Part shown: positions 4,934 through 24,905 of the stretch, in pieces
How positions within the stretch are numbered: the first letter of the stretch is position 1
How the letters are laid out: every line of letters starts with the position of its first letter
Assembly (NCBI GenBank): GCA_040390225.1
Contig: JAZJYU010000061.1
Coordinates: 4,104-47,439, forward strand
From: Actinomycetota bacterium
GTDB lineage: Bacteria > Actinomycetota > Actinomycetes > Actinomycetales > Microbacteriaceae
Direction of reading: 5' to 3'
DNA length: 43,336 bases
Translations under genes and position numbers: made by a program
The notes under the pieces: generated by a model
Told to the model about the DNA's origin: nothing
The model's database searches: none
Seen by the model: only the letters and a program-made list of their open reading frames with translations

Positions 4934-4975
4934 GTGACTTTGGTCCCGATGAACCAGTGGCACATGAGTCAAACT
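4934..4975 (+). promoter_or_regulatory. DosR-type box with -10 element
   Basis: GTGACTTTGGTCCC 4934-4947; CAAACT 22 nt downstream. Confidence 0.6.
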
Positions 4976-5126
4976 CTTGTTTATCGGAGGGAATCGGATG
5001 CGCGATACGGGGGTATTCCGCGCAACACACAAGTGGGGACCGGGTCGGGGGTGACTCGGTCTCCACCGTGCCGGATCGAATCCGAAGGACACCGTTGAAC
5101 CTGGTCGGGATGGCCCCTGGATAGAC

Positions 5127-5140
5127 GGGACCAAGGTCCT
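5127..5140. promoter_or_regulatory. DosR-type box
   Basis: GGGACCAAGGTCCT palindrome; -10 candidates on both sides (GAGGCT on + at 5163, CAGGTT on - at 5103-5098). Confidence 0.65.
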
Positions 5141-5282
5141 TATGATCCACTGGCACATAGACGAGGCTCTGCTGCATCGGATCATGTCCGAGTGCGAGAT
5201 ATGGGGGTATCCCGCACTGCATACGCATGGAGGCCGGGTCTCGGGTGACCTGGCCTCCATTTCGTTTCGCCTCTGGCCTTGC

Positions 5283-6766: not shown

Positions 6767-7824
6767 TGCCCGCGAAGCACCCGCGACCGCGGTTCCCGAC
6801 CTGGGCGCGGGTGCTGCTCTCGACGGTCGCCCTGGGGCTGGCGGTATGGTTCGTCATCCTGCCGCAGTTCGCCGACGCGGCCGCCACTCTGCACACGCTC
6901 GAGCGCATCTCGATCCCGCTCCTGGTACTCGCGGTGGTCTGCGAGCTCGGATCACTCCTCTCGTACACGGCGCTCACCCGCACGGTGTTCGGCAAGACCC
7001 ACCCGCCCTTCTTCACACTTTTCAGGCTCGACCTCGTAGACCTCGGCATCAACCACGTCGTACCCGGAGGCGCACCCATCGCCATGGGAGTGCGCGTGAG
7101 TCTGTTCCGGTCGGTGGGCGTTCGGGGAGCGGTGGGGATGTCGGTCACGACGATCGAGATCGTCGTCGCCAACCTCATGCTCGGCGCGTTGCTCGGTCTC
7201 GGCGTCGCGCTGTCACTCGGCGTGCTCACCGGATCGGTGTGGCTCCTTGTCGCCGCGGCCGTTGTGATCGGGCTGGTGATCGCCACGATCCTTGCCACCT
7301 GGAGGCTGGTCTTTCACACCGAGAGTTCCGTTCGTGCCGTGCTGTCGGTCGTGTCGCACGTGCGTTTCATCAGTACTGAGAGCGTTGAGATGTTCCTGCG
7401 AACGATGGCACGGCAGTTGCATGGGCTGCTCACCCGGCGATCCAAGCGCGTGAGGGCGATCATCTTCTCCGCGCTCAACTGGATCCTCGACGCCGCGGTG
7501 CTATGGATCATGCTGAGCGCCTTCGGCACCCCACCGCCGATCGGCGGTGTGATCACGGTGTACGCCGCCGGCGTTCTCGTCTCCATGCTGCCGATCACTC
7601 CGGGTGGACTCGGTGTGGTCGAGGGCTTCATGGTTCCCGCGCTGGTCCTGCTGGGAACCGTCCACTCGACCGCTCTCATCGCGGTGCTCGCATGGCGCCT
7701 GCTCGAATACTGGCTGCCCCTTCCGCTCGCGGGACTCTCGTGGATCTCGCTCCTGGTCGACAGACGCCGGGACCAAAGGCCCGTCGCGAGCGCGGCACCT
7801 GCTCCAGCATCGAGCCATGGATAA
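6766..7824 (+). CDS. Lysylphosphatidylglycerol synthase TM-domain (YbhN/UPF0104 flippase-like) protein
   Basis: Multi-TM; INHVVPGG and LPITPGGLGVVEG...AVLAWRLLEYWLP motifs; ATG 6766 overlaps the upstream TGA. Confidence 0.85.
   Translation: MPAKHPRPRFPTWARVLLSTVALGLAVWFVILPQFADAAATLHTLERISIPLLVLAVVCELGSLLSYTALTRTVFGKTHPPFFTLFRLDLVDLGINHVVPGGAPIAMGVRVSLFRSVGVRGAVGMSVTTIEIVVANLMLGALLGLGVALSLGVLTGSVWLLVAAAVVIGLVIATILATWRLVFHTESSVRAVLSVVSHVRFISTESVEMFLRTMARQLHGLLTRRSKRVRAIIFSALNWILDAAVLWIMLSAFGTPPPIGGVITVYAAGVLVSMLPITPGGLGVVEGFMVPALVLLGTVHSTALIAVLAWRLLEYWLPLPLAGLSWISLLVDRRRDQRPVASAAPAPASSHG
7769..7810 (+). promoter_or_regulatory. DosR-type box with -10 inside the 3' end of the upstream gene, leaderless arc promoter
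   Basis: GGGACCAAAGGCCC 7769-7782; CAGCAT 7805-7810; ATG 7817. Confidence 0.65.
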
Positions 7825-9205
7825 GACCACAGACATCGCCCCTCGCAAGAAGGCGACGCCCGGCAGGCTCGGCCTGCCCACCGCATCCGCGCTCGTCATC
7901 GGATCGGTCATCGGTACCGGAGTGTTCGGTATCCCGTCCGCCCTCGCCATGTTCGGCCCCATCAGCCTCGTCGCCTTCGTGCTGGTCACTATCGGAGCAC
8001 TGGCGCTCGCGATCGTGTTCGGCTGGCTGGCCCAGCGCATCCCCGGATCCGGTGGCCCGTACCTCTACGCACGGGATGCGTTCGGGGACTTCGCCGGCTT
8101 CCTCAACAGCTGGTCGTACTGGGTGACGGCCTGGGCGGGCAATGCGGCGATCGTCGTCGCGCTCACCGGCTACGTGGAAGTGTTCGTGAATAAGGACCAC
8201 AACATCTGGTGGTCGATCGTGATCGCCGTGATCGGACTGTGGATCCCGGTGCTGATCAACGTCGTCGGCATCCGCACCCTCGGTGCGGCTCAGGCGATCT
8301 TCACGGTGCTGAAGGTCATCCCGCTCGTGCTCATCGCCGTCGTCGGGTTGTTCTTCATCAATCCGGCCAACTTCGGTGCGTTCAATTCGTCGGGCACCAA
8401 CGCCTGGAGCGCCATCGCCGGTGCGGGCGCGATCGTTCTGTTCGCCTACCTGGGCATCGAGACCGCGTCCGTGGCCGCCGGCCGCGTGCGCAATCCGGAG
8501 AAGAACGTGCGCAGGGCGACCGTCTGGGGCACCGTGATCTGTGGTGTCATCTACGTTCTCGGCACTCTGGCCGTGTTCGGCACAGTGAGCAACAAGGCGC
8601 TTCGCACCTCGACGGCGCCGTTCAGCGATGCCGCCAACGCGATCTTCGGAGGCACCTGGGGAGGCGACCTCATCGCGATCGCCGCCATCGTCTCCGGACT
8701 CGGCTGCCTCGTCGGCTGGACCTTCATCGTGGGCGAGATGCCGTTCGCGGCCGCGAAGGATGGGATGTTCCCGAAGGTCTTCGCTCGTGAGACCCGTGGC
8801 CTGCCGATCGTCGGCATCCTCGCGTCGACCATCTTCGCCACCCTGCTCACCGTGCTCGCGTACACGAACTTCTCGAACGTGTTCACGACGGTGCTGCTGC
8901 TGACCGTGTTCACCTCGGTGATCCCGTACATGTTCTCGGCGGGTGCGCAGGTGTTCTGGCTGGTCACCCATCGCCGCACCATGGCATGGGGGCCGTTCGC
9001 GAAGGACCTGTCCATCTCCATCGTCGCTCTCGCGTTCACGTTCTGGGCTCTCGCGGGCAGCGGCGCGCAGGCCTGCTATTACGGCGTGTTCTGCTTCCTG
9101 CTCGGTGTGCCGCTCTACATCTGGTTGCGCGCGTCGAAGAAGAAGGACCCGCTGGACGAACCGGCCGCCACTGCTCCGGCGCCGGAACTGGAAAGGGCAT
9201 CATGA
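7817..9205 (+). CDS. APC-family amino acid permease, probable arginine/ornithine antiporter (ArcD/PotE-like)
   Basis: [26 protein letters not shown] motifs; about 12 TM; first gene of the arc operon. Confidence 0.88.
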
Positions 9206-10476
9206 CCACCGCCACTGCCTCGGCCGGTCCACTGGACGAACCGACCGCCGCGGCCGATCTCGGGGTTCACTCCGAGGTCGGGCGCCTGCGCAAGGTGATC
9301 GTGCATCGGCCGGGACTCGAGCTCGCGCGGTTGACACCGCAGAACCGCGAGGAACTGCTCTTCGATGACGTTCTCTGGCCATCGAAGGCACGCTCCGAGC
9401 ACGACGGCTTCGCCGATGCGATGGAGTCTCGCGGAATCGAGGTGTTCCACTTCGACACGCTTCTCTCCGAGACACTGGAGCAGGCCCCGGCCCGTGACTT
9501 CGTGCTCGACCGGCTCTGCACGACCGACGTGTTCGGGCCGTCTTTCGCACCGTACCTGCGTCACGCTCTCGCTGAGCAGGAGTCGGCGCGTCTCGCCGAG
9601 TTGCTGATCGGCGGCATTCTGCCATCGGATATCGCAACACCGGCGAGCGCGAGCCTCTTCGCGGATGCGCTTGGGCCGGACGGATTCCTCGTTCCGCCCG
9701 TGCCGAATTCACTCTTCCCTCGCGACAGTTCGGCCTGGATCTACGGCGGTGTCAACGTCAACGTCATGGCCAAGCCGGCGCGGGCACGCGAGACCGACCA
9801 TGTGCGGGCGATCTACCGGTTCCACCCGATGTTCGCGGACGCTCAGTTCGCGCAGTTCAACACGGACGAGACACGGCGTCGCTCCACGATCGAGGGCGGC
9901 GATGTGCACGTGCTCGGTCATGGGGCAGTGCTGGTCGGGATGGGCGAACGCACCACTCCGATGGCGGTCGAACTGCTCGCCAAGGAATTGTTCGCCACCG
10001 GTTGGGCCACGTCGGTGATCGCCATCGCGCTGCCGAAATCGCACTCGATGATGCACCTCGATACCCTCATGACCATGGTCGATCACCGCACTTTCGTGCT
10101 GTACCCGAACGTGGCGCCGAAATCGTTGCACGCGTGGAGGATCACGCCGTCGGGTGACAGCGATCGGCCGTTACGGGTCGATGCCGAACGGCCCCTGATG
10201 GCTCTGATCGGTGAAGCGCTCGACCGGTCGGACATCCGTGTGCTGTCCGCCGACGAGGACAGCCGGGCCGCCGAGCGCGAACAGTGGGATGACGCAAACA
10301 ACTACCTGGCACTCGAGCCTGGCGTCGTCGTCGGCTACGACCGCAACGTCACGACGAACACGATGCTGCGCAGAAACGGCATCGAGGTGATCACCGTTCC
10401 CGGCAGCGAGCTCGGACGCGGTCGCGGTGGCTCACGCTGCATGTCCTGCCCCATCCTGCGCGACCCGGCGGAGTGA
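9202..10476 (+). CDS. arcA: Arginine deiminase
   Basis: [54 protein letters not shown] (catalytic Cys). Confidence 0.97.
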
Positions 10477-11513
10477 TCGATATGACCTTGCTCACCGAAC
10501 CGGCGACCGGCATCCGGCACCTGCTGCGCGACACCGACCTCACGAAGGCCGAATATCTGCGCCTGCTCGACGACGCCGCGGCTCTCAAGCGGGAGCGCGC
10601 AACGGGGACCATCAGTCCCCGGCTCACGGGACGCGATGTCGCGGTCATCTTCGAGAAGCCCTCCACCCGCACGCGGAGCGCCTTCGAGGTCGCGCTGCAC
10701 GACGAAGGCGCCGGCTGCACCTACATGGATTCGGCGAGCAGCCACCTCGGCACGGCGGAGTCCTTCGAGGACACCGCCAAGGTTCTGAGCCGCTTCTACG
10801 ACGGCATCGCCTATCGCGGGTTCGCGCAGTCCGCCGTCGAGGAGCTCGCGCAGCACGCGTCGATTCCGGTCTGGAACGCGCTCACCGACGAATGGCATCC
10901 CACCCAGGCGCTCGCCGACATGCTCACGATGCGTGAGACGGCAGGCAAGCGGCTCGAAGACGTGGTCGTGTGCTTCACGGGCGACGGCCGCAACAATGTC
11001 GCCCGCAGCCTCATGACCTCGGCGGCGATCCTGGGCATGGACATGCGGATCGCAGCACCTGCCGCGCTCCAACCGCCGCCGTCGGTGATGACCTACGTGC
11101 GGGCGATCGCAACGCACTCCGGCGGCTCGATACTCATCACCGACGACGTCGAAGCGGCCGTGCCTCGCGCGGACTTCATTTATACGGATGTCTGGGTGAG
11201 CATGGGCGAGTCAGACGAGCTGTGGGACGAGCGGGTGCCGCTGCTGAAGCCGTACCGCGTCGACTCCGAGTTGATGGCGCTGACCGGGAACCACCAGGTG
11301 AAGTTCCTGCACTGCCTGCCTAGCATCCATGACCGAACCACCGAACTCGGCGCGAAGGTCTTCGAGCGCTACGGCCTGGAGGGCGCCGAGGTGAGCAACG
11401 AGGTCTTCACCTCGAACGCGTCGAGGGTCTTCGAGCAGGCGGAGAATCGCATGCACACAATCAAAGCCGTCATGCTCGCATCACTGAATTCCACCGACTC
11501 CGCGGAGAGCTAG
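10473..11513 (+). CDS. arcB: Ornithine carbamoyltransferase (catabolic context)
   Basis: [44 protein letters not shown]; start may be ATG 10482. Confidence 0.95.
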
Positions 11514-12424
11514 TGCGCATCGTGATCGCTCTCGGGGGCAATGCGCTGCTCAAGCGCGGCGAACGACCGGATGCCTCCATCCAGCTCGCCCACCTCGACT
11601 CGGTCGCGCCGGCGATCGCCCGGCTGGCTGCGGACCACGACGTCATCATCGTGCACGGGAATGGGCCACAGGTCGGGTTGCTCGCGAACGAGAGCGCGGC
11701 CGATCCGGCCCTGAGATCGCCGTATCCACTGGCGGACCTGGTCGCCGAGACGCAGGGCCTGATCGGCTCGTGGATCCAGCGCTCGCTCACGCATGCCGGG
11801 TTGACCAGGGACGTCATCGTGCTCGTCTCGAGAACCCTGGTGAACCACGACGACCCCGCCTTCCACAGGCCGGCGAAGTTCATCGGCCCGATGCTCGACG
11901 CCGACCAGGCGAGACGGGCGAGGGCGCAGGGACGCACGATCGCAATGGACGGCGAATCGTGGCGACAGGTCGTTCCCTCCCCAACGCCCGTGAGAGTGCT
12001 CGAAACCGCACGAGCGTCGCAACTGCTCGACGCCGGCTGCACCGTCGTGCTCGCCGGCGGCGGCGGAATCCCCGTCGACCAGCACGGTGACGCGATCGAC
12101 GCCGTGGTCGACAAGGATCTGACCGCAGCCAGGATCGCCGTCGATCTCGAAGCGGAGCTGCTTGTGATCCTCACCGACGTGGACGGCGTGATGCGCGACT
12201 TCGGCACGTCAGGGCAGACGTTGATCCGCGCAACCACGTCCAAGGAGCTCTCCTCTCAGCAGTTCGCCGACGGGTCCATGGGTCCCAAGGTTCGTGCGGT
12301 CAGCCAGTTCACTTCGGCCACGGGCCGCCGGTCGGCAATCGGCCGACTCGATGAGCTCACCGGAATCATCGTGGGGACCGCGGGCACCCAGGTGCACGCT
12401 GAAGCCGTGACGGCGGCGACATGA
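11513..12424 (+). CDS. arcC: Carbamate kinase
   Basis: IVIALGGNAL, HGNGPQVG, KFIGP, GGGGIPV, AVVDKD, GSMGPKV. Confidence 0.95.
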   Translation: MRIVIALGGNALLKRGERPDASIQLAHLDSVAPAIARLAADHDVIIVHGNGPQVGLLANESAADPALRSPYPLADLVAETQGLIGSWIQRSLTHAGLTRDVIVLVSRTLVNHDDPAFHRPAKFIGPMLDADQARRARAQGRTIAMDGESWRQVVPSPTPVRVLETARASQLLDAGCTVVLAGGGGIPVDQHGDAIDAVVDKDLTAARIAVDLEAELLVILTDVDGVMRDFGTSGQTLIRATTSKELSSQQFADGSMGPKVRAVSQFTSATGRRSAIGRLDELTGIIVGTAGTQVHAEAVTAAT

Positions 12425-13224
12425 GCAATCACCTCCCGCACCCGGGCCGCGCGCCCTCCCTTCATATCGCCAGCGACAACGGCAGTGGACCGGCTGTGCT
12501 GCTCGTTCACGGCATCGCGTCGTCGGCGACGACCTTCGATCCGGTGCTTCCGCTTCTCGGCGGGCATCGCGCGATCGCCGTCGACCTGCTCGGTTTCGGG
12601 CGCTCGCCTGCCCCGCTGAACTCGGACTACACGATCGACGACCACGTCGCCTTCCTCGAGCGCACGATCGAGGATGTGCGCGTCGAGGGTCCGATCGTCG
12701 TTGTCGGTCACTCGATGGGCTCGCTGATCGTTGCCAGGCTCGCGGCAAGGAACCCGTCGCTCGTGCACGGCGTCGTACTGGTCAGCCCGCCGGTCTACCT
12801 GCCTCCGGAGATCCTCTCCAATCGGACCGACCGTGCGACCATGGGGCTCTACCTGCGCATCTACGAGTTTCTGGGGAACAATCGCGATTTCAGCGTCAGC
12901 GCTGCGCAGGCGATAGCGCAGTTTCTCCCACGGGAGGGATTGCTTCATCTGGACGAACACGACTGGCGGCCGTTCGCACTGTCTCTGCGGCACTGCATCG
13001 AGAGCCAGACGACCATCGATGACATCTCCAATATCACGGCGCCGATCGAGGTCATCTATGGCGCCCTCGACCCCTTGATGTTGCGCGAGGGGCTCCACAT
13101 CGTGAGCCGCATGCGCAATGTGCATACCGAGAAGATCTCCGGCGCCGATCACATCGTGCGCGAGCGACTCGCAAGGGCGATCGCTGACGCGGTGAACCGG
13201 GTGTCGTCACCCGTGGGACCTTAG
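12421..13224 (+). CDS. Alpha/beta-fold hydrolase
   Basis: LVHGI, DLLGFGRS, GHSMG nucleophile elbow, G..D and GADH; ATGA overlap with arcC. Confidence 0.88.
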   Translation: MSNHLPHPGRAPSLHIASDNGSGPAVLLVHGIASSATTFDPVLPLLGGHRAIAVDLLGFGRSPAPLNSDYTIDDHVAFLERTIEDVRVEGPIVVVGHSMGSLIVARLAARNPSLVHGVVLVSPPVYLPPEILSNRTDRATMGLYLRIYEFLGNNRDFSVSAAQAIAQFLPREGLLHLDEHDWRPFALSLRHCIESQTTIDDISNITAPIEVIYGALDPLMLREGLHIVSRMRNVHTEKISGADHIVRERLARAIADAVNRVSSPVGP

Positions 13225-13256
13225 TCCCGAGACGCACCGAGACCCGGGTCGATGAT
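13215..13256 (+). promoter_or_regulatory. DosR-type box with -10 element
   Basis: GGGACCTTAGTCCC 13215-13228 (near-perfect palindrome); GATGAT 22 nt downstream. Confidence 0.7.
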
Positions 13257-13262
13257 CGGGGG

Positions 13263-13381
13263 AACGCTCGTGGCCGATTCCCTTTCCGGCGCGCCCGAGC
13301 CGGGCATCCCGCCGACCTGCGCCTGTACCCGAACGGCGCTGGGGTGTCGGGTCGGGGAGCTCCCCCCAGAGCTCCCCGACC
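13263..13381 (+). ncRNA. Candidate ~120-nt DosR-dependent sRNA
   Basis: Has its own box and -10; no credible ORF; ends in a perfect 13-bp stem; the downstream gene has a separate promoter. Confidence 0.45.
13350..13381 (+). terminator. Perfect 13-bp hairpin with CCCCCA loop
   Basis: GGTCGGGGAGCTC-CCCCCA-GAGCTCCCCGACC; no U tail. Confidence 0.6.
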
Positions 13382-13392
13382 ACAATCTCGCC

Positions 13393-13434
13393 GGGCCTTT
13401 CGACCCTATTCGGCCTTCGGCGCGGGCGCACTAT
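13393..13434 (+). promoter_or_regulatory. DosR-type box with -10, leaderless BON gene promoter
   Basis: GGGCCTTTCGACCC 13393-13406; CACTAT 13429-13434; ATG 13442. Confidence 0.65.
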
Positions 13435-13441
13435 CGATGTC

Positions 13442-14119
13442 ATGGACACAGCACACACAACGCAGGCACGAAGTGACACCGACATCCAGCATGACGTGCT
13501 CGATGAACTCGACTGGACCCCCGATGTCAATCCGGCGCACATCGGCGTATCGGTCAACAACGGGGTCGTCACCCTTTCCGGCGAGGTCAGCACCTTCGCG
13601 GAACGCGTCGCCGCAAAGGACGCGGCCGTCAGCGTGCGCGGCGTCACCGGACTGGCCGACGAACTTGAAGTCGAGACCGTGGCAGCGTACAAGCACACCG
13701 ATACGCAGATCGCGGAGGCGATCGTGTCTGCGCTTCGGCTCCGCACCGACATTCCCCGTGACACGATCACCTGCGAGGTTTCGGCCGGGTTCGTGACGCT
13801 CAACGGCCAGGTGGCCTGGAATTTCCAGCGCGACGCCGCCCGCCACGAGGCCTCTCGGATCGTGGGAGTGCGGCTGGTGACGAACAAGATCACCCTCAGC
13901 CCACGCGCATCCGCGAGCGACACGGCCGAGCGAATCCGCAAGGCCCTCGTGCGCAGTGCTCAGGTCGACGCGGACGGGATCGTCGTGCACGTCGACGGAA
14001 GCGCTGTGAGGCTGACCGGGTACGTTCGCTCCTGGGCGGAACGCCAGCAGGCGGCGACCGCAGCCTGGGCATCGCCGAATGTCACGACAGTGGACAACGA
14101 CCTGGCTGTGAAGGCCTGA
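13442..14119 (+). CDS. Triple BON-domain (OsmY-like) protein
   Basis: Three repeats of D..I...V...L...I.V.V..G.VTL.G.V...A..V.GV..V.N.L. Confidence 0.92.
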   Translation: MDTAHTTQARSDTDIQHDVLDELDWTPDVNPAHIGVSVNNGVVTLSGEVSTFAERVAAKDAAVSVRGVTGLADELEVETVAAYKHTDTQIAEAIVSALRLRTDIPRDTITCEVSAGFVTLNGQVAWNFQRDAARHEASRIVGVRLVTNKITLSPRASASDTAERIRKALVRSAQVDADGIVVHVDGSAVRLTGYVRSWAERQQAATAAWASPNVTTVDNDLAVKA

Positions 14120-15278: not shown

Positions 15279-15743
15279 ATGTCCCCCAAAGTCATCGTCG
15301 TCGGCGTCGATGGGTCCGAGACCTCACTCGCCGCGCTGCGCGAGGCCGCCTCATACGCGAAGCTGATGAGTGCGTCACTGCGCTGTGTCACCACCTGGAA
15401 CTTCCCCGCGTTCGAAGAGGCCGTCGGCGCTTATGACCCCGAGCAGGACGCCAAGGAGATCGGTCGCGAGGCGACACGAGCCGTCTTCGGGGAGGTGGTT
15501 CCGCCGTGGGTCACGGTAGTCGCCAAACTCGGCCCGGCCGGCCCCGCGCTGGTCGATGAGAGCGAGAACGCCTCGCTGCTCGTGGTCGGCACGCGCGGTC
15601 ATGGTGCGGTCGGGCGGCTGCTGCTCGGGTCCGTCAGCACGCACTGTGCCGAGCGCTCGAAGTGCCCGGTGCTGGTCGTACCCGGCAACGCGAGCGACGC
15701 GTCGAGTGTCAGCGATCCGCTGCCGGCTGCTGCCCGAGCTTGA
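15279..15743 (+). CDS. Universal stress protein (single domain)
   Basis: IVVGVDGS...LLVVGTRGHG...LLGSVS...CPVLVVP; AAGGAG RBS before ATG 15279. Confidence 0.93.
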   Translation: MSPKVIVVGVDGSETSLAALREAASYAKLMSASLRCVTTWNFPAFEEAVGAYDPEQDAKEIGREATRAVFGEVVPPWVTVVAKLGPAGPALVDESENASLLVVGTRGHGAVGRLLLGSVSTHCAERSKCPVLVVPGNASDASSVSDPLPAAARA

Positions 15744-16359
15744 GAATGGCGGCCTGAGTCCTGCGTTGCAGCCCGAGCTTGCTGAGAAGGCCAGACACGT
15801 AATTCTTCACCGTCTTTTCGGCAAGTTCGAGTTGCTCACCGATCTGCCGGTTGGTCAGCCCGTCGGCGATCAGGGCCAGGATCTGACTCTCTCGTGTGCT
15901 GAGTGAACCCAGCCTCGGGTCGGCCGCCGAGTCGTTCTCCATTTTGGTGACGACGAGCCGGGCGAGGCTCGGGTCGAGTAGCGACTTGCCCGACGCCACC
16001 TTGCGCAGCGCTTCGAGCAGGCCGCTGCCGCGGATGTCCTTCAGCACGTAGCCCGATGCGCCGGCGATCACCGCCGAGGAGATGGCCTCGTCATCGTCGT
16101 AGCCGGTGAGCATCAGGCAGCGGATGTCTGGATTGCTGGAGCGGATGTCGCGACAGACGTCGATGCCGCTCCCGTCAGGCAAGCGCACGTCGAGCAGCGC
16201 GATGTCGGGTGTCGTTGCGGCGATACGGCCCCGCGCCTGCGCGGCCGTCGATGCTTCACCGACCACCTCGATGTCGCGCTCCGCGTTCAGGAGTTCGGCG
16301 ATTCCTCGCCGCACGATCTCGTGATCGTCGACGAGGAATACGCGAATCATGTCAGGCAT
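15709..16359 (-). CDS. devR: NarL/LuxR-family response regulator, DosR/DevR-like
   Basis: IRVFLVDDHEIVRRG, LLDVRLPDGSG, GLTNRQIGEQLELAEKTVKNYVSGLLSKLGLQRRTQAA (DevR HTH signature). Confidence 0.9.
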   Translation of the reverse strand: MPDMIRVFLVDDHEIVRRGIAELLNAERDIEVVGEASTAAQARGRIAATTPDIALLDVRLPDGSGIDVCRDIRSSNPDIRCLMLTGYDDDEAISSAVIAGASGYVLKDIRGSGLLEALRKVASGKSLLDPSLARLVVTKMENDSAADPRLGSLSTRESQILALIADGLTNRQIGEQLELAEKTVKNYVSGLLSKLGLQRRTQAAILKLGQQPAADR

Positions 16360-18064
16360 GGGCTTTCTCTTCTTCTGCCGTGAAGGGCACGGTCCAGGTC
16401 AGCGTCGTTCCGGTGTCGCCCGATTCGACCGTCAATGTGCCACCTCGCGCTTCGGCACGAGTCTGCAGATTCGCCACGCCGCTGCGCCGTGTCGACCCCT
16501 GCATCCCGCGCCCGTTGTCGCCGATGACCACCACGACGTCACCCGCGATAGCTTCCACGCGCACGGTGCACCGGGTCGCCCGAGCATGCTTGGCCACGTT
16601 CGTCACGGACTCGCGCACGACGGCGAAGACATCGTCGGCGAGCGAGTCGACGATCACCAGATCAACCGGGCCGGCGAAGGCTATCGACGGCGGCCCGTCC
16701 AGCCCCGCGGCCAGTTCGTTGCCGAGATCGATGAGGCGGTGCCGGATGGTGTCGCGATTCGCGGCGGTCGCCGACGAGAGCGTGAAGATCGCCGTGCGGA
16801 TCTGCAGGATCGCGTCATCCAGATTGCCGACAGACTTCATCAGGCGTGCCGATAACCCCGGATCGGACACCGAGCTCGCAAGGCTTTGAAGCTCCAGCCC
16901 GGTGCCGAACAGCTGCTGGATCACGTGGTCGTGCAGGTCGCGGGCGATGCGCCCGCGATCCTCGAGCAACGACATCTGCTCCTGCGCTGTGCGCGCCTTC
17001 ATCAGCTCGAGAGCGACACTGCCCTGTCCGGCGAAATCGGCCACCATCTCGAGGTCGGCGAGATCGAAGGGATGCCCGTCTTCAAAACGGCTCACCATCA
17101 GCACCGCCTCCACCGTGTCGGCCGACACCATCGGAAGGCCGATGACCGGCCCGAATCGCAGGCTGCCCTGCAGCTGCACGGAACTCGCCGAACCGTCGTT
17201 GACCAGTAACGGCTGGCGCCCCTCGAACACCCGGCCGGCGAGCGTATCGCCTGCCGGGTATGACATTCCGACCAACTGCTCGGCCCCTGCTCCCTGCGCG
17301 AGGGTCACGGTGACCTCGTCACCGGCCGCGTTGAGCGCGGAGAGATGCACGATGTCGGCTTCGGCGAGTTGAAGCACCCGACTCAGGAGAATGGCAAGCG
17401 AGCTTTCACGGTCGGTCGAGAGCATCGCCGAGGTGACTTCGGCGGACGCCGCCGCCCAGGCCTGCCTTCGCTTGGTCTCCGCGAACAGCCGGGCGTTCTC
17501 GATGGCGAAACCCGCGGTGGCCGCGAGGTATCCGACGAGCTGTTCGTCCTCCGCGCTGAAGGTCCCCTTCTCTTGATTGCTGAGATAGAGATTGCCGAAG
17601 ACACGATCACGGATGCGCACCGGTACGCCGAGGAAACTGTCCATCGGCGGATGGTGGGCCGGGAATCCGGCAGACCTCGAGTCGTCGCTGATGTGCTCGA
17701 GCCTGATCGGATGCGGGTCGTCGATGAGGGCGCCGAGCAGGCCGTGCCCCTCGGGGAGGTGGCCGATCGCCTCGACCTCGCCTTCCGGCATCCCGACGTG
17801 GATGAACTGCTCCAGCCCGCCCGAGGGCGACACCACACCGAGCGCTCCGTACTGGGCGCCGACCAGCTCGACCGCGGCTTCGACGATCTTGCGGAGCACG
17901 TCGGCCAGATCGAGGGACTCGACGACGGCCTGATTCGCGCGGAGAAGCGCTCTCAGCCGGCCCTGGGTGGCCATGACGTCCTGCGCCTGTTCAACCAGAT
18001 CGGCCAGGGTTCGGTCGAGTTGCGCACGTGGCGCATCGGGAAAGGAAAGCATGTCGTCTGACAC
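16352..18064 (-). CDS. devS: Tandem-GAF histidine kinase, DosS/DevS-like heme gas sensor
   Basis: GAF-A with IGHLPEGHGLLG and GFPAHHPPMDSFLGVP; H-box EDRGRIARDLHDHVIQ; N-box ESVTNVAKHA; DNGRG; GTG 18064 after AGGAG. Confidence 0.88.
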   Translation of the reverse strand: MSDDMLSFPDAPRAQLDRTLADLVEQAQDVMATQGRLRALLRANQAVVESLDLADVLRKIVEAAVELVGAQYGALGVVSPSGGLEQFIHVGMPEGEVEAIGHLPEGHGLLGALIDDPHPIRLEHISDDSRSAGFPAHHPPMDSFLGVPVRIRDRVFGNLYLSNQEKGTFSAEDEQLVGYLAATAGFAIENARLFAETKRRQAWAAASAEVTSAMLSTDRESSLAILLSRVLQLAEADIVHLSALNAAGDEVTVTLAQGAGAEQLVGMSYPAGDTLAGRVFEGRQPLLVNDGSASSVQLQGSLRFGPVIGLPMVSADTVEAVLMVSRFEDGHPFDLADLEMVADFAGQGSVALELMKARTAQEQMSLLEDRGRIARDLHDHVIQQLFGTGLELQSLASSVSDPGLSARLMKSVGNLDDAILQIRTAIFTLSSATAANRDTIRHRLIDLGNELAAGLDGPPSIAFAGPVDLVIVDSLADDVFAVVRESVTNVAKHARATRCTVRVEAIAGDVVVVIGDNGRGMQGSTRRSGVANLQTRAEARGGTLTVESGDTGTTLTWTVPFTAEEEKAHA

Positions 18065-18157
18065 TGCGGGCTCCTGGTTGCTAAGACGATGCTGCGCGGA
18101 CCAGTGCCCTGATCCGACGCTCGCAATGCTACCTCTCGCGCGCCGGATTGCTCGGGG

Positions 18158-18199
18158 AGGACCTTGGTCCCGGTCGTTCGCGGTCGTGCACGAAATGCT
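18158..18199. promoter_or_regulatory. DosR-type box in the devS / usp-cyd divergent region
   Basis: AGGACCTTGGTCCC 18158-18171; AATGCT 22 nt downstream on +. Confidence 0.75.
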
Positions 18200-18227
18200 G
18201 GTATTCGGCAAGCGAGGAGAAAAGGAC

Positions 18228-19085
18228 ATGACCGACGCGATCATCGTGGGGGTGGACGGCTCGACCGCATCGACATCCGCGATCAAGTGGGCCGCGGAGC
18301 GCGCCCGCGACCGTGGACTCCCACTCGAGGTGGTGTACATCGTCGACGACTACTGGGGAAGCATGGGCGAGCGCGAGCTCGGCGAGCTGCACCCGGACAT
18401 CGCCGGCGTGGTCGACGATGCCGCTGCTGTCGCGCGCACGATCGCACCCGACACTCTCATCTCGGCACGTGTGCACACCGGCGACCCGATGGTCGAATTG
18501 GCCGAGGCATCCCGCACTGCGGCGATGATCGTCGTCGGCACCCACAAGACCGGCTTCTTCCACGGCCGCGCGTTCGGCTCCCGCAGCCTGCAACTGGCGG
18601 CGATGGCCTGGTGCCCGGTCGCCGTGATCCCCGGCTTCACGTCCGCGCTTCGCAAATCCATCGTCGTCGGCGTCGACGACTCCGCCGCATCGGCAGCCGC
18701 GATCGACTTCGCCGCGGAAGAATCCATCGCCACGAGCGAACCGCTCGTGTTCGTGCACGGCACGGAGGAGCCCGCGCGGGACCCCGCCAGACGAACGACG
18801 ACCCTGACCCAGTCGCTGACCAGGGCAGCGATGGTGCGGGCGAAGGCGGTGGGCGTCACCGAGTTGGTGCGTGCGCGGGAGATCGCGCGGCCGGCGGCCG
18901 AGGCTCTCATCGACGCGGCCCTCCAGGCGAATCTGCTCGTCATCGGCACGTCGCGGCGTCGCGGAATCGAGCAGTCCGCGCTCGGCCCGGTCGCGCACGA
19001 CGTGCTGATGAACATCACCGGTCCGACCGTCGTCGTACACGGCGACATGAACCCGTCAACCACCCAACCCCGGAGCACTCTGTGA
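18228..19085 (+). CDS. Tandem-domain universal stress protein
   Basis: Two IVVGVD...G motifs; GAGGAG RBS; stop overlaps the cydA start (GTGA). Confidence 0.92.
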   Translation: MTDAIIVGVDGSTASTSAIKWAAERARDRGLPLEVVYIVDDYWGSMGERELGELHPDIAGVVDDAAAVARTIAPDTLISARVHTGDPMVELAEASRTAAMIVVGTHKTGFFHGRAFGSRSLQLAAMAWCPVAVIPGFTSALRKSIVVGVDDSAASAAAIDFAAEESIATSEPLVFVHGTEEPARDPARRTTTLTQSLTRAAMVRAKAVGVTELVRAREIARPAAEALIDAALQANLLVIGTSRRRGIEQSALGPVAHDVLMNITGPTVVVHGDMNPSTTQPRSTL

Positions 19086-24790: not shown

Positions 24791-24859
24791 CTGCCCCGAC
24801 CGCGATCAACGGCCGGCGGTGTGTGCTCGGTCACGAACCCGAACGGTACCGAGCACACG

Positions 24860-24891
24860 AAAAGGCCCGCGGCACGAAGCCGCGGGCCTTT
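24860..24891. terminator. Bidirectional intrinsic terminator between convergent cydC and ALDH
   Basis: AAAGGCCCGCGGC-ACGAA-GCCGCGGGCCTTT, with T-runs on both strands. Confidence 0.85.
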
Positions 24892-24905
24892 CTCGTTGGC
24901 TGGCG

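Follow-up and report, generated by a model that had tools for sequence, protein, structure and literature searches.

The most similar described system is DrrS (MTS1338) of Mycobacterium tuberculosis, a highly structured RNA of roughly 110-120 nt that begins with a 5' stem-loop, lacks a 3' U tract and is transcribed from a promoter of the DosR type, in which a single site covers the -35 region, 34 bp upstream of the start (PMC5360333). According to the same report, DrrS is absent even from M. smegmatis, and an RNA of this type would lose stability with three unpaired bases at its 5' end (PMC5360333, section 12). Our literature search on the conservation of DrrS found nothing. Among Gram-positive bacteria of high GC content, the 6C RNA (B11) possesses C-rich loops able to pair with G-rich ribosome-binding sites without a chaperone (PMC6486639). 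The small RNAs DapZ, MicL, MicX and ArgX, which have measured ends and targets, have their promoters within the final codons of the gene upstream (PMC9438474). The OsdR regulon of Streptomyces coelicolor is controlled by a regulator of the same family as DosR and shares a similar palindrome, AGGGCCGATCGGCCCT, and usp genes located near the two-component system; the term 'small RNA' is absent from the main text of that paper (PMC5069765). A DosR-controlled sRNA in Microbacteriaceae was not found in the literature accessible to our search, which excluded most subscription journals and does not prove absence.

The window analyzed here, a stretch of 43,336 nucleotides, belongs to the 2.98-Mb genome (66% GC) of a freshwater actinobacterium, known from a metagenome only, in the genus Lacisediminihabitans (Microbacteriaceae). 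It corresponded to a hypoxia island encoding an amino-acid antiporter, arcA, arcB, arcC, an alpha/beta hydrolase and a BON protein, along with alcohol dehydrogenases, Usp, cytochrome bd, phosphoketolase and ackA/pta. Sequence comparison identified a DosR/DevR-like response regulator (positions 15709-16359, minus strand), adjoined by an ORF with the GAF-GAF-HisKA_3 domains of a DosS-like kinase (16352-18340, minus strand). The best match of the regulator among solved structures was DevR/DosR (PDB 3c3w, E 2.9e-68; the next was 1.8e-39), and by this comparison it is a DevR/DosR orthologue, the genome thus encoding a cognate DosR/DosS pair. A DosR-type regulator was also present in 25 of the 31 other genomes of the genus. 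The hydrolase gene (12421..13224, plus strand) is, by gene order, the last of the antiporter-arcA-arcB-arcC run; the run, spanning 7769-13224, carries a leaderless DosR-type promoter with its box at 7769, and within the family the hydrolase usually occurs in other gene contexts. Elsewhere in the island, back-to-back hairpins at 24852-24902, one of them a 13-bp stem flanked by A/T runs, look like a bidirectional terminator separating cydC from an aldehyde dehydrogenase gene that converges on it. A short hydrophobic ORF with a Shine-Dalgarno site was also observed behind near-perfect DosR-type boxes, conserved across the genus (loci L159, L166, L180, L181, L186, L196, L201, L211, L223, L237 and L245, and C16:9843 on the minus strand of G000).

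The DosR-type box GGGACCTTAGTCCC at 13215-13228 on the plus strand showed no mismatch to GGGAC-N4-GTCCC and was followed, at +22, by the -10 element GATGAT (13251-13256). It was one of three perfect boxes in the window and four in the whole genome, where 27 boxes had at most one mismatch, nine of them on the contig of the window. Among the 13 window boxes with NANNNT at +22 or +23, 11 used +22, including this one, and the probability of finding NANNNT at one fixed offset by chance is about 0.03 at 66% GC by our own arithmetic. The combination of box, N22/23 and NANNNT gave 183 matches in 32 genomes of the genus, as against 11 for the reversed control. The candidate promoter therefore consists of a DosR-type palindrome and a -10 element at the fixed spacing of the regulon, and its -10 context resembles the ATGATC element of the DosR-regulated Rv1733c as given in Table 2 of PMC5360333. 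As leaderless genes behind the DosR-type promoters of the window begin at +33 to +38, the transcript start was predicted near A13263. The box, the GATGAT element and the start near 13263 that the initial annotation had named were all recovered at these positions with the regulon spacing kept, with the correction that the box overlaps the TAG stop codon of the upstream hydrolase gene. A promoter in the opposite orientation was rejected, as no -10 element was found on the minus strand. No start codon was present at the predicted start and no usable ORF followed, in agreement with the earlier statement that this promoter has no protein target. By our estimate, a transcript is probably made from it.

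The predicted RNA, about 120 nt on the plus strand (13263..13385, the start deduced from promoter spacing and the 3' end from the last hairpin), contained no ORF and folded into three hairpins. The first, H1 (13266..13300), exposes an accessible loop region, AUUCCCUUUC at 13277-13286, resembling an anti-Shine-Dalgarno sequence. The second, H2 (13303..13348), has an apical ACCCGA(A) loop at 13327-13333 and G.U pairs on the plus strand, and the third, H3 (13350..13381), is a perfect 13-bp stem with a CCCCCA loop at 13363-13368 and no U tract. The annotation had placed this stem some 120 nt after the start; it begins 87 nt and ends 118 nt past the predicted start. All the loops were C-rich and predicted to be unpaired, and the G.U pairs favored the plus strand. 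The segment 13263-13390 was more stable than all of 200 shuffled sequences (0/200, z -3.9), and it ranked first by folding z among 292 regions downstream of DosR promoters, drawn from the window genome and fetched loci of relatives and folded with 25 shuffles each. Of 49 further regions, only one fell below z -2, and this was the already counted Lacisediminihabitans profunda unit described below. Nearly all of the folding signal was attributable to H3, as the same segment without it folded ordinarily (z -0.4), and H3 alone is not unusual, since the genome contains 55 perfect stems of at least 13 bp. H3 does not have the form of a canonical intrinsic terminator, a hairpin followed by a U tract. 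It was nevertheless the only perfect stem of at least 9 bp within 260 nt past the hydrolase stop, and therefore probably also ends the arc-operon transcript. H3 is thus the likely 3' end, as predicted from sequence and fold, of both the candidate RNA and the arc-operon transcript, and for this reason an sRNA and an operon end are not mutually exclusive descriptions of the locus.

The initial annotation had proposed an analogue of DrrS, and the proposal fits as a functional comparison only, in terms of control and size. The candidate likewise has a single DosR-type site over the -35 region, 34 nt from the box end to the predicted start, about the same length, a highly structured fold with a 5' stem-loop and no 3' U tract. 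It differs from DrrS in its perfect 13-bp 3' hairpin and in the promoter overlapping an upstream stop codon, and its predicted 5' stem starts at base 4 from a deduced start, in contrast to the stem from the first base in DrrS. The two conserved C-rich loops of 6C RNA were also not reproduced; the candidate has only one loop with a long C run, its promoter is of the DosR type, and the Rfam covariance model of 6C RNA gave no match even at E 10. In common with DapZ, MicL, MicX and ArgX, the candidate promoter overlaps the coding sequence upstream of it at the 3' end, so that the RNA would share the 3' end of an mRNA. We give about an even chance to the reading that the locus specifies a DosR-driven sRNA, with its promoter over the last hydrolase codons and a 3' hairpin held in common with the arc operon. 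What makes a new small regulatory RNA likely is that a promoter of the low-oxygen type leads into about 120 bases that fold and carry no ORF.

Searches for relatives of the candidate were largely negative. No gathering-score match to Rfam was found anywhere in the window; relaxing the threshold to E 10 yielded nothing beyond weak matches to hairpins, far under the cut-off, and at E up to 1 nothing was found for loci L284, L199 and L244. The candidate region gave blastn matches in five of 60 other genomes, of which only that in G015 was real, comprising the BON promoter and start; another (L007) was rejected as it sits in ORF-like sequence. A one-sequence covariance model of the candidate (R2) detected no homologue in 79 genomes, in nearly all of which just 42 candidates were scored, and nothing in 0.39, 0.08 and 0.88 Mb of fetched loci. 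With no homologue by blastn in the 60 genomes or by covariance model in the 79, the covariation in relatives that the annotation had looked to is not available for the RNA itself. A promoter scan of G015, the closest island-bearing relative, detected no comparable structured ORF-less unit.

Screening of 291 promoter-like sites identified a recurrent type of unit in the genus. In G024 and G005, genomes of two other species of the genus, an ORF-less DosR promoter precedes an RNA of about 105 nt, followed by a second box; the RNA consists of a 5' hairpin, a long stem with an ACCCGAA loop and a C-rich 3' element, in this order. G018 carries a decayed copy at the same place, with the promoter lost. 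When 185,579 genomes were scanned for a box, a -10 and KACCCGAACR, 15 hits were returned, of which three were in the genus, namely the two training sequences (G024 and G005) and a new locus in L. profunda, which was also found by the G024/G005 covariance model (E 0.005). The other 12 read as coding sequence or the start of a gene, with no ORF-less unit of this kind, and were rejected. The L. profunda unit (L284:1347-1585, the same locus as L302) comprises an ORF-less DosR-type promoter and a 190-nt RNA (z -7.3) with two tandem ACCCGAA-loop stems; it lies outside the DosR island of a cultured strain and has no Rfam match. No same-strand ORF of at least 100 aa is located right behind it, which, with the different gene context, fits a stand-alone gene. 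Looser promoter-plus-loop patterns matched in nine of 400 genomes of the family and added a few hits from 24 further genomes of the genus. Folding of 13 new loci from these matches brought up no sequence that looked like an additional member, and L319/L323 proved to be a leaderless gene start. Loci L305-L307, from three genomes of one other genus, contain a conserved multi-hairpin intergenic stretch, where the promoter match looks accidental. Two further ORF-less DosR-type promoters on minus strands were noted, one in G004 (L113:19252) with a 14-bp hairpin at +49, a spacing resembling that of the tandem units described below, and one in G003 (L137:18080) with a 14-bp hairpin at +95 and a C-rich loop.

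The candidate shows the same order of elements, with an ORF-less DosR promoter ahead of a 5' hairpin, then the stem with the ACCCGAA loop and finally a C-rich element at the 3' side. Its alignment with the G024/G005 RNA was colinear (p 0.004-0.016 against shuffles and GC-matched genome, uncorrected, for a pair chosen by eye from 44 ORF-less sites), and that with the L. profunda RNA was not significant (p 0.14-0.22). The covariance model of the G024/G005 RNA missed the candidate, and the family HMM placed it third among the non-training regions with E 2.4. The loop itself is frequent in this genome, where ACCCGAA/TTCGGGT is the commonest 7-nt loop, occurring in six of 290 hairpins with loops of this length against about 0.06 expected. 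These hairpins, enriched about 100-fold, are intergenic, lie in both orientations and have unrelated stems, and five of the six have no box nearby (sites of such hairpins are on contigs C14, C83, C103, C110, C196 and C206 of G000 and in loci L070, L137, L285 and L286). The loop was also seen behind ispG in two relatives. The enrichment could reflect a terminator signature, a dispersed palindrome or a protein site. Since the loop is so common in intergenic hairpins of this genome, the resemblance is only suggestive of kinship between the candidate and the G024, G005 and L. profunda RNAs.

Two tandem units upstream in the window provided a second type of ORF-less DosR output. The unit u1 (4934..5066, plus strand) has a DosR-type box at 4934, the -10 element CAAACT and a predicted three-hairpin RNA of about 85-90 nt with G-rich loops; its tandem homologue u2 (5127..5268, plus strand) has a box at 5127, the -10 element GAGGCT, three hairpins and a U-rich tail, with an RNA of about 90 nt. 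Both -10 elements lie at +22 and neither unit holds a long ORF; each contains an 18-codon frame, in which the changes between the copies are mostly non-synonymous. On the plus strand 56/57 cells were paired. Of 29 pairs, seven were changed on one side by way of G.U, two were changed on both sides and one was broken. The covariation is good but does not amount to formal evidence, because there are only two sequences, the structure was derived from them and the shuffle control was not significant (133/500). This pattern suggests that RNAs from DosR promoters are under structural selection in this island, and u1 and u2 are arguably better-supported RNA candidates than the RNA starting at 13263. 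Both DNA runs, contigs from one study in which the candidate stretch showed no differences and one of which may be the source of the window, carried the u1-u2 tandem in one piece. The hairpin at 5033, credited in the annotation with a similar C5 loop on its minus strand, belongs to u1 as its 3' hairpin. That parallel fails because the loops of u1 and u2 are G-rich on the plus strand; at two positions where the plus strand forms G.U pairs, the minus-strand stem has A.C mismatches. No sign of homology between the candidate and u1 or u2 emerged from comparison, and this relation was rejected. A covariance model of u1/u2 (R1, with an imperfect automatic structure) gave two weak hits in 79 genomes, and their DNA matched in none of 31 genomes of the genus, with no convincing homologue elsewhere.

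Against the sRNA reading, the locus may instead be an operon end behind a promoter remaining from a lost DosR-controlled gene, in which case H2 and H3 would be no more than 3' hairpins of the arc transcript without function in trans. We consider this possible but less than probable. It agrees with a shuffled island, in which a box follows the gene in none of 29 hydrolase homologue loci and the spacer of the candidate is missing from all 18 BON homologue loci, as well as with the missing homologue, the dependence of the folding signal on H3 among 55 similar stems, the appearance of ACCCGAA-loop hairpins behind unrelated genes, and the decay of the related unit in G018 together with its promoter. 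On the other hand, no gene remnant is recognizable behind the 13215 promoter, and a box that is one of only four perfect ones in the genome argues against decay. The maintenance of equivalent ORF-less units across species and contexts, and the structure-preserving changes between u1 and u2, also speak for the sRNA.

The gene that follows has a promoter of its own. The separate box and -10 that the annotation had assigned to it were found at 13393-13406 and 13429-13434 (CACTAT), and the box was also present upstream of the G015 orthologue. The product, encoded at 13442..14119 on the plus strand, has three BON domains, and the gene is leaderless from the ATG at 13442 with no Shine-Dalgarno site (-3.2 kcal/mol). 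The 13215 promoter with its RNA could be viewed as serving the BON-adh-usp operon, as a promoter further upstream with a structured leader, and would boost or tune the downstream genes in cis by read-through or by transcription across the second box. The layout of box, RNA, box and gene does recur in G024, in G005 and in u1-u2-adh, in three loci of the genus (L160, L200 and L234) a gene that has a second promoter-like element is preceded, at about 130 nt, by a DosR promoter, and H3 lacks the U tract. Such a role is nonetheless unlikely, because a read-through leader would be translated poorly ahead of a gene that is leaderless, has its own promoter and lacks a Shine-Dalgarno site, and no ORF of at least 100 aa on the same strand directly follows the L. 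profunda unit. Eight of the 18 BON homologue loci show two boxes, the distal one usually serving a divergent gene, and a metagenome scan based on BON gave six loci with 39-54% identity.

The abundance of the ACCCGAA loop, intergenic and in both orientations, raises a further interpretation, that the stem is a dispersed palindrome or a protein-binding hairpin, in which case any RNA produced would serve as a decoy and not as an antisense regulator. RNAs that sequester proteins are known to repeat one loop, and the L. profunda RNA has the ACCCGAA loop twice. In the candidate there is only one copy, and a weaker one, the copies across the genome have stems of unrelated sequence, and no binding protein was identified, which makes this explanation very unlikely for the locus. 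Finally, translation of a small protein from the frame that stays open throughout the spacer (13252-13476, 74 codons), or from the GTG at 13270, is extremely improbable, as the ATG lies inside the -10 element with no Shine-Dalgarno-like sequence ahead, the frame overlaps the BON promoter and start, its composition (GC3 0.73 and GC2 0.63, as against 0.81-0.84 and 0.44-0.50 in the neighbors) is non-coding, and tblastn against the fetched loci gave nothing better than E 0.024.

Returning to the DosR-driven sRNA, the following course can be proposed. At low oxygen, phosphorylated DosR would activate the 13215 promoter from the single site over the -35 region, giving a non-coding RNA of about 120 nt from 13263 to around 13385. 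H3 would set its 3' end, either by terminating transcription in spite of the missing U tract or by blocking trimming from the 3' side, and would also end the arc-operon mRNA. Hfq, which is used by enterobacterial 3'-end sRNAs, is not expected in actinobacteria. By analogy with 6C RNA, the unpaired C-rich loops would base-pair with G-rich ribosome-binding sites (PMC6486639). The seed would lie in the H1 loop (UUCCCUUUC) more than in the CCCCCA loop, since the C5 loop requires a G run and cannot pair with the canonical GGAGG; G5 occurs within 22 nt in 79 of 2609 crude gene starts. The H1 loop is predicted to open cheaply (1.3 kcal/mol), and the whole H1 site at about 10.5 kcal/mol.

The best predicted target among the 2609 crude gene starts was a site at rpsB (-29.1 kcal/mol, with 16 of 17 bases paired), for a seed that was lengthened after the hit had been seen. 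The site is a lead only, because nine of 60 shuffled seeds equaled it and the pairing was not kept in three relatives. None of the predicted targets beat its control. Complementarity was also found inside the island, as the H1 region 13277-13286 can form nine perfect pairs plus four with the 5' part of u1 (4988-4996), and by complementarity the G runs found in loops of u1 and u2 could pair with the CCCCCA loop. Cofolding with the candidate, run with no control alongside, gave a gain of about 11 kcal/mol for u1 and about 2 kcal/mol for u2.

Taken jointly, these features could be read as a so far undescribed RNA layer in the DosR regulon of the genus. It would comprise a family of C-loop sRNAs (the candidate and those of L. 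profunda, G024 and G005), with u1 and u2 as co-induced G-loop sponges in this genome, and a shutdown of rpsB in which H1 covers the ribosome-binding site and helps to stop ribosome synthesis on entering dormancy. As a joint whole, this scheme is decidedly doubtful. If instead the promoter is a remnant, the locus reduces to an operon end of the ordinary kind, within a hypoxia island that has been shuffled. Should these RNAs be produced, DosR outputs with no ORF would have arisen on more than one occasion in actinobacteria. L. profunda, a cultured freshwater type strain, contains the strongest relative and would provide a harmless system for asking what dormancy-induced sRNAs do.
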